This document shows, piece after piece, positions 12-5,529 of a stretch of DNA of 64,000 nt. This stretch comes from Bdellovibrionota bacterium (GTDB lineage: Bacteria > Bdellovibrionota_C > UBA2361 > CAKMMH01): positions 1-64,000 of the forward strand of contig JBMNLI010000012.1 in the NCBI GenBank assembly GCA_050952645.1. The letters are read 5' to 3'. A model generated the notes under the pieces. The model had not been told where the DNA came from. It was given only the letters and a program-made list of their open reading frames with translations, and made no database searches. Each line of letters begins with the position of its first letter. Positions within the stretch are counted from its first letter, which is position 1. Position numbers and translations under genes: made by a program.

Positions 12-977
12 TCAATTTCCTAAAAGAATAAATTGTGGTTGTTCCATAGGTGGCAGATTATTCTTTTTTCGCCCTCTGTTGACTATCCATTTTGAAAGAT
101 CTAATACTACTTCTTCGTCCCTACGAACCAGATCTGTTAGAGGAAAGACTATCGGGTCTCTATCTTTTGTGCTTATTGGTACTGCAAGGCAATATTGAGT
201 AGGGAATTTAGGCACAAATAATTCTCTTTGGTCGTTGTAGGCAATAGCAATTTTTCCTTTGAGATGCTTTAAAAGAATAAAAAACCTATAATCTTCCTCA
301 ATATAATATTCACAGCCAGGGCATAACCCTTCCATTCGGGCTATTAAACGCTCTTTTCCATCCTTGCCTTTTGAAAAAAAACAACAGTATCTCGTCTCAC
401 TTAAGCAAGTCCTTCTACCCATTGCTATACTTAAACAATTGCCACCGCACTCGGTAATCGTTCCAATGAACATTTGGTCGTCGCAGATTTTTTTAGCAGT
501 CTCTATATTTATATCGGTCAAATCTAATGTTGGTTCTTCAAGCTCGAAAATACATCTTAGATAAAAATCAAAATCATAAGGTGTAGAAGTATCTGGCTTT
601 TTAAAATATAAATTTAGGACTTTTTTGTGTGGTGGCACTACGTTGATCCTGAAATGTGCCTCTGTATATTCGATAATACTGAGAATTCTGTTTTTAAATT
701 CGTCCTTATTACTTACTTCTAATACCAAGTTCTCCTGTTTATATCCTGGTGTTAATGCCTTGACACTATCTTTAGGAATTTCAGAGCATTCATGCCGACA
801 GATAGAAAAGGCAAACACCCCTTTATTATTTTCTAATACTACAGGAGAAAGTTCTAAGCCTTCAAACGATAGCCAAGCTTGAATTTCCTTAAAACCAAAC
901 TTCTTGTTTTTTTCTATTAAGAGTAGGAGTTTATGCTCAGTCTTAGTCGGCCAATCGCCACCCCTAACTTCGCTCAT
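12..977 (-). CDS. hypothetical protein (321 aa)
   Basis: Long ORF with a purine-rich RBS-like stretch (AAAGGGA) upstream on the minus strand; no family recognised. Confidence 0.7.
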   Translation of the reverse strand: MSEVRGGDWPTKTEHKLLLLIEKNKKFGFKEIQAWLSFEGLELSPVVLENNKGVFAFSICRHECSEIPKDSVKALTPGYKQENLVLEVSNKDEFKNRILSIIEYTEAHFRINVVPPHKKVLNLYFKKPDTSTPYDFDFYLRCIFELEEPTLDLTDINIETAKKICDDQMFIGTITECGGNCLSIAMGRRTCLSETRYCCFFSKGKDGKERLIARMEGLCPGCEYYIEEDYRFFILLKHLKGKIAIAYNDQRELFVPKFPTQYCLAVPISTKDRDPIVFPLTDLVRRDEEVVLDLSKWIVNRGRKKNNLPPMEQPQFILLGN

Positions 978-1278: not shown

Positions 1279-1362
1279 TATTCGCTCATATTTTAGTGAA
1301 AATCAGTCAACTATTCGCTCATATTTTAGCAAAAAGAGATTGATTATTCGCTCATATTTTAG
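1279..1362. repeat. three exact 18-bp direct repeats TATTCGCTCATATTTTAG, 33-bp period
   Basis: Copies at 1279-1296, 1312-1329 and 1345-1362 with unrelated 15-bp spacers; the array ends 45 bp before the AAA ATPase start. Confidence 0.95.
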
Positions 1363-1407
1363 TAAACTCTATTAAAATTAAGTAGTTATATTAAAAACAG
1401 GTAAAAT

Positions 1408-2751
1408 ATGATATATTTAAAGCGTAAAATAGATGATTTCTTTCTCTCGTGGAAAAAAAATGAAGATAAAAAACCTTTAATAGTGCGTGGCGCACGTCAA
1501 GTAGGTAAAACTGAGTCTATTCTCCATTTCGCTAAAAAAAATTATAAAAATGTAGTATATATAAATTTTGTAGAATCTCCTTTTTATAAAAATATTCTAT
1601 CAGATGGTTTTGCAGTAAAAGATATTATAAAAAATATTTCCTTGATAAATACAGAGTTCCGTTTTGAAAAAAATAAAACTATTATAATTTTCGATGAACT
1701 TCAAGAATTTCCCAATATTGCTACATCATTAAAATTTTTTATGTTAGATAAACGCTTCGATGTCATAGCTAGTGGGTCGATGCTTGGTCTAAATTATAAA
1801 TCAATCGAGAGCAATAGTGTTGGATTTAAAATTGATTACGAAATGCATTCTTTAGATTTCGAAGAATTTCTTTGGGCAGTGGGATACGAGCAAGAAAACT
1901 ATATCGTATTGTTAGAAAAAATGAAAAAAATTATTCCTTTGAATGAAGTTGAATTAAAAGTTTTTTCAAACTTGTTTTTAGATTTTTGTGTCATAGGTGG
2001 TATGCCTGCTATCGTAAAAGAATATGTGGCTAAAAAAACTTTTGAAGGAATTTTAGATATGCAAAGACAGCTAGTGCGTGATTACAAAGAAGACATTAGA
2101 AAATATGCACTAGGTATAGAACAAGCTAAAATTATAAATGTTTTCAATCAAATTCCAGTGCAGTTATCAAAAGAAAATAAAAAATTCCAGATTTCAAAAG
2201 TAGCAAAGGGTGCAAAGTTTAAAGATTATTCGGGTTGTATAGAGAGGCTTAAAGATGCAGGAATTGTTAATGTTTGTTATTGCCTTAATTATCTAGAGTT
2301 TCCTCTTAAAGGGAATTTCGATATAAACAAATATAAAATATATTTTGCAGATACTGGCTTGCTTGTAGCATCGCTCGATGATGAAACTCAAGAAAACTTA
2401 AGAGTAAATAAGAATTTGCACATATATAAAGGAGCTTTCTTTGAAAATATAATTGCTGAATCGTTAGTAAAACAAGGCTATGAGCTTTATTACTACAAAC
2501 GAGATAATTCAACATTAGAAAATGATTTTTTCGTAAGAACTTCAAAAGATTTGATACCAATTGAGGTTAAAGCTAAAAATAATAAAGCAAAATCACTAAC
2601 AGAGTTAATAACTAGTGAGCGATATCCTGCTATTAAATATGGTATTAAATTTATCGATGGTAATATCGGTTTCTCAAATAATATATGGACTTTTCCTTAT
2701 TTTTGTAGCTTTTTACTAAAAAGATATTTAAGCTCTAGTCCCCCTTCCTAG
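1408..2751 (+). CDS. AAA+ ATPase with C-terminal DUF4143 / PD-(D/E)XK-like domain (AAA_14-DUF4143 family)
   Basis: Walker A GARQVGKT, Walker B IIIFDELQ, GGMP motif, KIYFADTG, C-terminal ENDF...IPIEVKA. Confidence 0.9.
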   Translation: MIYLKRKIDDFFLSWKKNEDKKPLIVRGARQVGKTESILHFAKKNYKNVVYINFVESPFYKNILSDGFAVKDIIKNISLINTEFRFEKNKTIIIFDELQEFPNIATSLKFFMLDKRFDVIASGSMLGLNYKSIESNSVGFKIDYEMHSLDFEEFLWAVGYEQENYIVLLEKMKKIIPLNEVELKVFSNLFLDFCVIGGMPAIVKEYVAKKTFEGILDMQRQLVRDYKEDIRKYALGIEQAKIINVFNQIPVQLSKENKKFQISKVAKGAKFKDYSGCIERLKDAGIVNVCYCLNYLEFPLKGNFDINKYKIYFADTGLLVASLDDETQENLRVNKNLHIYKGAFFENIIAESLVKQGYELYYYKRDNSTLENDFFVRTSKDLIPIEVKAKNNKAKSLTELITSERYPAIKYGIKFIDGNIGFSNNIWTFPYFCSFLLKRYLSSSPPS

Positions 2752-3242: not shown

Positions 3243-5529
3243 ATGGCAGTAATAAAATCATCGATAGAAAAAGAATCACAAGATAGATACTTAACTTACG
3301 CTCTAAGTGTAGTTTCAAGTAGAGCACTCCCAGATGTGCGAGACGGACTTAAACCAGTTCAAAGAAGAATCCTATATGCGATGTATAAAAACCTTAATTT
3401 AAAACCTACTACTTCTTACAGAAAATCTGCATCCGTTGTAGGTGAGGTTTTAGGTAATTATCATCCTCATAGCGATACCGCTTGCTATGAGGCTATGGTA
3501 AGAATGGCTCAAGATTTTTCTTTACGATATCCAATCGTCGATGGGCAAGGAAATTTTGGATCATTAGATGGAGATTCTCCTGCGGCTTATAGATATACTG
3601 AGGCAAGACTTAAGGCTTTTGCTCTAGAGGTAATAGGTGAGATCGATGAAGAAACAGTCGAGTTTAAAGATAACTTTGACGGAAGACTAAAAGAACCTCA
3701 AGTGTTTCCTAGTAGAGTGCCTAATCTTTTAGTAAACGGCGCTTCTGGTATAGCAGTCGGAATGGCTACAAATATTCCTCCTCATAATTTAAAAAATGTT
3801 ATATCCGCTCTTATCGGACTTTTAGAAGATAGCGAAATTACAAACTCTAAATTAGTAAGCTTAATAAAAGCCCCAGACTTTCCTACTAGTTGCACAATCC
3901 TAAACTCTAAAAATGAACTAGATGAGATTTATAGTAGCGGAAAAGGTGCAATAAGAATGCGTGGCGACTGGGTAGCAGAACAGGGGGGAAGAGGAAAAAA
4001 CTTTATCATTATAACATCTATTCCTTATGGCGTTAACAAGTCGCAACTTATAGAAAAAATAGCATCGCTAATTACAGATAAAAAACTTCCGCAAGTAGTA
4101 GACATTCGAGATGAGTCTACGAGCGATGTTAGAATAGTTTTAGAATTAGCTCAAGGTGCCGATGCAGAGGTTGCAATGGCTTTTATATACAAAAATACGC
4201 CTTTAGAAAGCAATTTTAATGTTAATTTAACCGCTCTAGTGCCTAGCAAAGGGATAAGCTTAAAGCCTCAAGTGTTATCTTTAAAAGAATGTCTTCAATA
4301 TTTTCTAGAGTTTAGAGTAGATGTAACTAAAAGAAAATTAACTTTTGAAAAAAAACAGCTCGAAGCTAGGGTGCATATTTTAGAAGCACTAGCTAAAATT
4401 TTTGATGCTTTAGATGAAGCTATAAAAATAGTTAGAAAAAGTTTAGGAAGAGTAGATGCCGCTGAAAAATTAAGAGTACGCTTTAGTCTTACCGAGGTTC
4501 AATCGTTTGCAGTAGTCGATATGAAAATATATCAATTATCAAAAACGAATATCGAAGAGGTTAGAGAAGAGTTAAAAGCGAAATTAAAACGTATAAAAGA
4601 AATCGATGCGTTATTAAAAAGTGAAAAAGCTATTTTTAATATCATAAAAGAAGACTTAGAAAGTGTATCAAAGAATTCGGTGATGCTAGAAAGAGTAAGC
4701 TTATAAAAGATTGGCAAGACCAAATAGTAGAGTTCGATAAGAGTGAATATTTAGTAAAAGAAGATATCTACGCTATTATCACTAAAGATGGCTGGATAAA
4801 AAGAATTAGACAAAACAATGAGCTTTCTTCTACAAGGCTAAGAGATGGAGATAGCATTTTTAAAGCTTTTCCAATAAATACGTTAGATAATGTAGTGTTT
4901 ATCACTAATTTAGGAAGCGTCTATTCTCTTAACGCTTCAGAGTTCCCGTCTTCTAGTGGCTACGGCTCACCAATTCAAAAGATTTTAAAATTTAAAGATG
5001 GCGAGATCATAGTTGAGGCGTTCTTCCTTAAAAATTCCGAAGAAGAACAAGTCGATTTGTTAAATTTTGTTGATGATAATAAAATGGATGAGATAAAAAA
5101 TAATGAAAGTGTAATTTTAATTACGAAAAAAGGCATGGGAGTAGGATACTGCTTAGGAGATCTTACAAATATTAAAAAAAGCGGAAGACGTATAATGAAA
5201 GTTAAAGATGATGATGAGTTAAGAGTAGTAGTAAAGTTTGATAAAAATTTAGCTATGTTTACTAGCGATGCATCCGCTTTATCGATAAAAACAAAACAAA
5301 TCCCACTAAAAGAAAACCCCGTAGTTGGAGTTATCTTAATGAGTGTTAGAGATGAGGAAGAACTCGTAGCGGCGATAAGCTATGAAGGAGATGAAGCTTA
5401 ATTGTTTTAAGCGATAAAGGAAAAGAGGTCGTTGTAGATACCTCTTCTATCGTAAAGGGAAAAAGAGGCTTAAAAGGAAATAAGATTTTATCAAAAGCTA
5501 GATTAGTAAATGTTAATCTTGCAAGATAA
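3243..5529 (+). CDS. parC: DNA topoisomerase IV subunit A, with two apparent frameshifts (~4670, ~5398)
   Basis: [16 protein letters not shown] and catalytic AAYRYTE. The frame continues as EFGDARKS...ITKDGWIKR into ORF 4895-5401, then IVLSDKGK...ARstop at 5529. No GyrA-box; short C-terminal domain. Confidence 0.85.

Follow-up and report, generated by a model that had tools for sequence, protein, structure and literature searches.

The window (the whole 64,000-nucleotide stretch of DNA that we analyzed) carries, at positions 1279 to 2751, a short array of direct repeats followed by a gene of the PDC-S01 / COG1373 family. The repeat TATTCGCTCATATTTTAG occurs in three exact copies (1279-1296, 1312-1329, and 1345-1362), with periods of 33 and 33 and with 15-nt spacers, and the array stops 45 nt short of the start codon (ATG, 1408), an arrangement that the original prediction had described correctly. 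The features are as follows.

1279..1296, + strand: repeat 1; core ATTCGCTCAT starting at 1280, followed by a T-tract and a G (from the sequence and homolog comparison)
1297..1311, + strand: spacer 1, 15 nt; its two ends are A-rich in homologs
1312..1329, + strand: repeat 2 (from the sequence)
1330..1344, + strand: spacer 2, with the predicted -35 box at its end
1340..1345, + strand: predicted -35 hexamer TTGATT, 4 of 6 consensus bases (from a sigma70 score)
1345..1362, + strand: repeat 3; 1346-1362 is the exact 17-bp spacer of the predicted promoter
1363..1368, + strand: predicted -10 hexamer TAAACT, 4 of 6 consensus bases (from a sigma70 score)
1408..2751, + strand: PDC-S01 / COG1373 gene, 447 aa, with NTPase, helical lid, winged helix, and PD-(D/E)XK nuclease (from Pfam, PADLOC, and a structure model)
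1489..1512, + strand: Walker A motif GARQVGKT (from the sequence)
1684..1698, + strand: Walker B motif IIFDE (from the sequence)
2116..2370, + strand: predicted winged-helix domain, aa 237-321 (from the model, fold comparison, and conservation)
2509..2577, + strand: nuclease motif with D373, E386, and K388 (from alignment and fold comparison)

In 300 shuffles of positions 1000-1407, the longest equally spaced triple reached 7 nt, compared with the 18 nt observed. The conserved core begins at 1280, position 1279 being variable in two other strains. The 18-mer is unique in the 1.95-Mb genome; a search for further copies, as had been suggested at the outset, found none at up to 2 mismatches. Runs X1-X5 and X7 have DNA contigs with near-identical pieces, and the cassette DNA was not found at the equivalent place in the three closest relatives searched. 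The predicted promoter is weak, with 8 of 12 consensus bases, and a stricter standard scan called none.

The ORF at 1408-2751 matches AAA_14 (E 7.8e-24) and DUF4143 (E 1.2e-31) in Pfam, and the PADLOC profile PDLC04786 (PDC-S01) matches residues 3-440 (E 9.1e-147), that is, the full length. These Pfam matches, together with the presence of D373, E386, and K388, bear out the AAA_14-DUF4143 assignment and the D...EVK nuclease motif that had been read from the sequence. In a structure model (pLDDT 88), an NTPase is followed by a helical lid and then by a winged helix at about aa 237-321, and the nuclease forms the C-terminal part. The best fold matches of residues 1-324 are the archaeal NTPase-wHTH proteins Paby2304 (2qen; Z 16.8, rmsd 5.0, 272 aligned) and SSO1545 (2fna; Z 16.0, rmsd 3.6, 265 aligned), followed by NLR/STAND proteins and DNA-bound Orc1/Cdc6 (Z 10.6-11.2). 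The C-terminal domain is closest to the PD-(D/E)XK domains of Can1/Can2/Card1 and McrC, with middling scores (Z 6-8, rmsd 3.3-5.4), and its Foldseek match to Can2 has an E of 1e-4. E346, D373, E386, and K388 are invariant across 71 aligned homologs. The HTH part (aa 252-277) is the best-conserved segment, at 95% compared with 71-79% for the NTPase, lid, and nuclease. Our searches found no solved structure of a sequence homolog, and NCBIfam and PHROGs gave nothing useful.

The gene stands alone between a divergent ORF that fits no known family and topoisomerase genes of the parC/gyrA type. The divergent ORF (window 12-977, - strand, 321 aa) has neither a family match nor a paralog. The parC/gyrA-type gene at window 3243-5401 is split into ORFs 3243-4706 and 4895-5401, possibly by a frameshift or an assembly error.

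Boxes at the predicted promoters of homologs

Our homolog set consisted of the best 80 of 447 confirmed stretches (61-67% identity), with a usable start in 78. Record titles among these best 80 of 447 name Clostridia, Bacteroidales, Treponema, Fibrobacter, Coriobacteriia, Bifidobacterium, Gastranaerophilales, and Endomicrobia, hosts that we take to represent about seven phyla. Allowing ≤1 mismatch, the window 10-mer has 130 matches on the + strand of the 300 nt upstream (76 loci) and 0-1 matches in each of seven control zones. A box matrix finds at least one box in 66/78 loci and at least two in 58/78, with 4 matches in 0.96 million other strand-bases; the matrix was derived from those 10-mer matches and is hence partly circular, whereas the seed test itself is non-circular. 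Successive boxes are spaced by 32 (49 cases), 33 (56), 34 (2), or 64-65 bp (3), so that 107 of 110 spacings fall at 32-34 bp. Phased repeats upstream of homologs, which the original prediction had proposed to look for, are therefore present, and several of the 12 zero-scoring loci carry, by eye, variant boxes with the same period. The loci with conserved boxes span 31-59% GC, and their median pairwise protein identity is 68%.

The consensus box reads ATTC(G/C)CTCAT, one free base, a T-tract, and GT. The tract is AAA in 34 of 432 boxes, and A- and T-tract boxes occur together in 9 of 157 distinct arrays, which fits a readout of duplex shape. Across homologs, the spacers are 13-15 nt long and 72% AT. 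They had been described as unrelated, and this holds for the window, where the two are identical at 6/15 positions in register; across homologs, by contrast, spacer likeness is 60% within arrays (68 pairs) compared with 39% between arrays (5603 pairs), and 12 of the 68 within-array pairs are ≥90% identical. The claim that the repeat is under selection is supported, as are its phasing at about three helical turns, its conservation with the protein, and its variation with the protein clade.

A further suggestion had been that the array is a mini-array transcribed into short guide or regulatory RNAs, similar to those of CRISPR or TIGR systems. The fixed-length repeat-spacer layout would suit such a role, and in two of four tests the fold of the + strand is slightly better than that of shuffles (z -2.1 and -2.4). 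Yet a different array gives a z of -0.07, no Rfam match was found, and transcription is predicted to start downstream of the repeats. Moreover, the short, AT-rich spacers resemble tandem duplicates, A- and T-tracts interchange, and a second strain keeps the spacers while the upstream gene (window 12-977) differs at many sites. TIGR arrays are described in PMC12045711 as two alternating 8-12-nt repeats with 9-nt spacers, a layout unlike the one 18-nt box per 32-33-nt unit seen here. CRISPR arrays have 25-36-nt repeats and unique spacers of similar size, in contrast to an 18-nt box with 13-15-nt, often duplicated spacers. A guide RNA function is very unlikely on these grounds, and the mini-array suggestion is not supported. 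TIGR-Tas systems also have a Nop-domain protein next to the array; the Nop family did not come up in the Pfam scan and is unlisted in the fold searches, which does not exclude it. The idea that the repeat pairs in antisense with the region around the start codon (a 10-nt complement at 1402-1411) was rejected separately, since by eye it was not seen in homologs and the repeats precede the predicted start site.

The array overlaps or abuts the predicted promoter of its own gene and is phase-locked to it. Namely, the best predicted sigma70 promoter lies within -2..0 bp of the repeat lattice in 46/59 arrays (by a simple score), and the promoter spacer begins 30-34 bp past the last box in 26/31 loci (only downstream DNA was scored; the shuffle null is 15%), the distance to the ATG in those loci varying from 47 to 72. 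The last strong box fills the -35/-10 spacer in 11/59 loci, the window included, and lies upstream of the -35 in most loci.

Since the array sits on the predicted promoter and travels with the gene across many groups, it is likely a binding site of the protein encoded there. Our preferred reading, which we consider probable, is that the array is a DNA operator bound by the winged helix of this protein, which would thereby repress its own gene. The self-regulating one-gene module envisaged in the original prediction thus comes out as the best reading, in the form of a predicted operator. A single winged-helix domain would occupy each 18-bp box, with the HTH reading the CGCTCAT half and the wing perhaps reading the A/T tract by DNA shape. 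The three-turn period would place the boxes on one face of the helix, allowing a cooperative, nucleotide-dependent assembly of protomers over the predicted promoter, and a last box in the -35/-10 spacer or just upstream of the -35 would block RNA polymerase. Orc1/Cdc6 and STAND proteins assemble in such a cooperative, nucleotide-dependent way. Such repression would keep a potentially toxic effector-type nuclease low in any new host, and array and gene together would make up a portable 1.5-kb cassette. Infection or foreign DNA is the leading candidate for what triggers the nuclease, at somewhat less than an even chance.

Alternatively, the protein may bind the array and activate the promoter, in a positive feedback like that of MalT-type STAND regulators. 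The end of the last strong box about 7 bp before the -35 box in 26/31 loci is a position that would suit an activator. However, this box occupies the -35/-10 spacer in the 11 loci mentioned above, many predicted promoters are near consensus and should need no activator, and positive feedback on a nuclease would be risky. Activation is thus quite improbable.

Box types among clades and paralogs

The preferred binder, the encoded protein, can be considered against the distribution of box types in a diverse set of 65 PDC-S01 genes, the majority of which come from a single host family. Within one host family, the window-type matrix matches 18/29 genes at ≥55% identity and 0/35 below, and the remaining 11/29 close genes fall below the matrix threshold. 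In the wider clade, a 31-33-bp lattice exceeds the shuffle maximum in 35/46 genes, and the boxes change with the HTH. A distant clade has a 23-bp lattice in 13/15 genes; its unity is by construction, since it was gathered with a single query. Six genes of one subclade (L320, L322-L324, L326, and L327) are without a direct-repeat lattice. Two loci whose hosts belong to different groups but whose HTH is of one type (L254 and L298) have a common box, and the protein of L223 is 32% identical and yet has a very similar box. In the genome of the window itself, the predicted promoters of the three other intact paralogs bear repeats, direct or inverted, that are different. Box sequence and period track the protein clade and not the host. 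Clade tracking alone is no proof of contact, since box and gene are co-inherited, and residue-level covariation in the close subfamily was uninformative, HTH and box both being near-invariant.

No neighbor gene co-travels with the cassette, as 137 neighbors sort into 114 families, of which the biggest has 4 members. The paired box was found in 4/5 genomes searched, at one site each; therefore, it does not mark a regulon. We infer from these patterns that the simplest candidate binder is the encoded protein. If a host transcription factor bound the boxes instead, their promoter position would be no surprise, as it suits any regulator. Yet the identical box type extends over about seven phyla while paralogs in one genome differ, and a genome holds one site; a host factor is accordingly highly unlikely.

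Several PDC-S01 genes occur in pairs or as fragments. The window's own genome (G000) has two convergent paralogs at C10:200605-203701, with inverted or direct repeats at each promoter; the second has a D-Q-T nuclease motif in place of D-E-K, and relatives in L253 and L255 likewise deviate (D-Q-A). At C17:10703-11101 of this genome, the 3' stub of a fifth PDC-S01 gene (profile aa 328-432) is fused directly behind a protein kinase-like gene. In L223, L004, L036, and L253, PDC-S01 genes or arrays of different subfamilies stand back to back.

The array had also been called iteron-like. Plasmid Rep proteins, which have iterons, autoregulate, and archaeal Orc1/Cdc6 proteins bind ORB boxes. Like both, PDC-S01 would combine an ATPase with a winged helix and has phased direct repeats beside the gene, and a reading of the repeats as replication iterons, with the protein as a replicon initiator, could appeal to the Orc1/Cdc6-like fold (Z about 11) and to the direct repeats that adjoin the gene. 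In contrast to these systems, PDC-S01 has a fused nuclease, scattered sites, many paralogs, and a 33-bp period, with no sign of an origin; compared with Orc1/Cdc6, its locus is not stable or essential. The fold comparison gives a Z of 10.6-11.2 for Orc1/Cdc6, below the 16-17 for STAND-like proteins. Homologs at E≤1e-60 are on just 3 of 72,556 plasmid records, which counts against a replication role, and the gene forms solitary chromosomal insertions amid housekeeping genes, has several paralogs per genome, and is often deleted. We judge an initiator role extremely unlikely.

The neighborhood can be described further. Most of the 63 neighbors scanned in Pfam are housekeeping genes. Among another 59 neighbors, PADLOC matches at 1e-10 were obtained for 6/59, four of them clear. 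PDC-S01 occurrence is patchy, multi-copy, and often marked by deletion.

Gene-less arrays and cassette ends

A pattern scan of metagenome contigs gave at least 119 matches, at least 80 of them with long flanks, which form 50 clusters. Among the matches listed, 30 of the 50 clusters have a gene start (23 full length and 7 cut by the sequence end), and the others are 2 contig ends, 1 chance coding repeat, 4 arrays with a 3' stub only, and 13 with no gene trace. The gene start is missing in 17 of 47 informative non-redundant metagenome arrays among the matches listed, and the 37 scorable short-flank matches listed fall into the same classes, mostly repeating the 50 clusters. In 301 Lachnospiraceae genomes, the pattern was found in 17 and a reversed control in 0; these 17 comprise 9 intact loci (one in the centre genome), 1 stub, 6 gene-less arrays, and 1 doubtful case, and the gene start is missing in 7/16 arrays. 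A relative from the window's own genus also carries a gene-less array. In 7/7 orphan-bearing genomes, all incomplete assemblies, we found no cognate gene elsewhere (best 40% or none), and an eighth, also an incomplete assembly, holds only a broken copy.

Allelic pairs or stubs allowed seven junctions to be mapped, about +6, +15, +33, +35, +35-45, +49, and +88 nt past the last box; the zone within which all seven fall (6-88 nt) is 7% of the array-to-stop distance. Two of them, base-mapped against intact alleles, are blunt and without microhomology, and the right ends of the deletions vary (aa 46, 206, about 383, 392, 410, or beyond the gene). Among the matches listed, no locus combines a retained 5' part with a missing 3' end, and 23/23 start-bearing, long-enough genes reach the C terminus. 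At least three scars (L121, L130, and L161) retain the predicted promoter. For gene-less arrays without an intact allele, we likewise infer deletion scars. Occurrence of the box before unrelated genes had been named as a finding that would speak against the original prediction; it does occur, but where it can be traced, the arrays are deletion scars of the same gene. These biased deletion scars are new here and are the main unexplained feature.

One explanation is that the array also serves as an assembly site from which the nuclease cuts just downstream, so that the cassette would now and then delete its own gene and may, in the manner of a selfish element, favor its own exchange. This is compatible with binding of the array by the winged helix. 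The frequency of arrays without a gene start, the narrow junction zone, the two blunt junctions, the variable right ends, the intact C termini, the retained promoters, and the lack of a cognate gene in the seven orphan-bearing genomes would all agree with it. So would the cassette ends, as the sequence shared by close intact pairs (91-99% identity) starts ≤50 nt from the first box in 8/12; it often ends at the stop codon. Selection, however, predicts the same, and can explain the breakpoint bias: a broken gene would derepress a strong promoter, favoring deletions that remove the promoter or nearly the whole CDS. The junctions, moreover, do not fall at a single base, and the bias is known here for PDC-S01 alone. 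Long direct duplications (53-113 bp) flank just 4/87 cassettes (3 independent), compared with 0/60, 0/514, and 1/81 in controls; they were found in 3/47 of the diverse set and at 2 gene-less arrays. The flanks of the window cassette have none. Ordinary host recombination suffices to account for them, since an AbiE-type cassette in L047 lies within a duplication of a similar kind. No terminal repeats or recurrent adjoining transposase were found, and a suspected circle junction proved spurious. We consider self-cleavage unlikely.

That circular form, via a 2812-to-1258 joint, had been suggested by 21 bp of AT-rich sequence in a 340-bp contig that is unrelated. A candidate target duplication at the window cassette (score 34) was not significant, as 37% of AT-rich windows reach this score. 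The close-pair junctions examined for insertion sequence or transposon marks are without terminal inverted repeats, a transposase, or a regular short target duplication. In L034, a perfect 105-bp duplication of a host gene start (2766-2870 and 4385-4489) surrounds the cassette and suggests a very recent insertion.

Other repeats are present in the window's genome. The element at 1186-1256, of which the genome has five further copies, was at first taken for the relic of a 23-bp PDC-S01 array, a reading rejected on finding that the best copies have terminal inverted repeats and are MITE-like. It is a probable MITE with terminal inverted repeats and outward -35-like hexamers, present in six copies (G000 C8:5515-5617, C15:43805-43883, C16:24980-25049, C2:41264-41334, C17:339875-339976, and the degenerate window copy at 1186-1256), and a pattern search did not find it in 90 other genomes of the order. 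Just past one MITE copy, from about 25075 of C16, a CRISPR-like array with 36-nt repeats begins. An intergenic repeat of ~28 nt, REP-like and in dozens of copies, occurs on many contigs (e.g., C12:7712 and 36953). Gene-less 23-bp and 33-bp lattices lie at C17:239445-239515 and C10:317729-317830, the former resembling the live array of a PDC-S01 paralog in the same-genus genome (L331); both may be scars of other subfamilies.

Three viral contigs match array patterns; one is a chance coding repeat, and two resemble gene-less arrays. The latter, L082:1950-2050 and L335:1790-1850, hold 32-33-bp arrays of the box without a PDC-S01 gene and could be scars or possible decoys. A single-protein query found no homolog in viral_contigs, and 9 distant matches occur in GenBank phage records.

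Relation to known systems

In the parts of the sources available to us, PDC-S01 ranks fourth in frequency among defense gene families (PMC12988326) and is very abundant, and most PDCs await validation (PMC12988326, PMC13356809). One PDC-S01 CDS was among eight candidates in E. coli challenged with T4, T5, and T7 and is absent from the four named protective in the accessible portion of that source (10.1101/2024.09.26.614923). The main text of 10.1101/2024.01.29.577857, to the extent available, does not mention PDC-S01, and the available part of 10.64898/2026.10.19.760177 contains a passing mention and describes no arrays. From similarly partial sources, the function of DUF4143 is given as unknown (PMC3424549), a DUF4143 gene changed 6.6-fold in Thermus with a plasmid (PMC4406477), and IniR is an SSO1545-like regulator (PMC5760070). 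Within the PDC-S01/DUF4143 literature covered, available in part and with most subscription papers outside its scope, we found no description of arrays, autoregulation, or deletion scars.

By its composition, a single gene with an ATPase fused to PD-(D/E)XK, intact motifs, and no conserved partner, the window protein is a member of PDC-S01. Compared with the STAND-like proteins Paby2304 and SSO1545, which match it best in structure, and with Avs, its nuclease is C-terminal, and a length of 447 aa leaves no room for a TPR-type sensor. Avs proteins have an N-terminal effector and long C-terminal sensor repeats, whereas the 447-aa model has the NTPase first, the nuclease last, and no repeat region. 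We know of no operator arrays for Paby2304, SSO1545, or Avs proteins. PDC-S01 has no CARF sensor, and its likeness to Can1/Can2/Card1 and McrC, with middling Z values, is one of shared fold and not of function.

Autoregulated defense or addiction genes include the C-protein/C-box of restriction-modification systems, AbiEi, and antitoxins. The likeness to such modules is that a toxic nuclease would be held down by a repeat-binding protein at its own promoter, easing horizontal transfer. In contrast to them, regulator and nuclease in PDC-S01 would be one polypeptide with an NTPase switch, and the putative operator is a direct-repeat lattice of 2-5 copies. Overall, the array-gene unit would work like known self-repressing nuclease modules and is no member of the iteron, CRISPR, or TIGR classes. 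The array is a real conserved cis-element of a huge and uncharacterized family, with an autoregulatory operator as its most likely role.

A more radical interpretation of the family is that PDC-S01 genes are selfish one-gene elements and not mainly anti-phage, the protein polymerizing on its own array and the nuclease cutting downstream. We give it a small chance. If true, it would explain the sharp ends of the cassette, the abundance of arrays without a gene, and the large number of paralogs that have private operators, and PDC-S01 would be a natural site-anchored nuclease that takes its specificity from an exchangeable pair of HTH and array. Whichever applies, the scars record frequent and biased gene loss, which bears on host benefit versus selfishness, and orphan repeats of this kind can be mistaken for regulons or mini-arrays.

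PDC-S01 is among the commonest predicted defense genes of prokaryotes and is without demonstrated activity; a candidate cognate DNA site is the first direct handle on it. The predicted operator suggests why testing a bare coding sequence may fail. The cultured Ruminococcus albus 7 has a PDC-S01 copy (WP_013483414.1) with a variant array. Finally, paralogs with private boxes would form natural orthogonal repressor-operator pairs.
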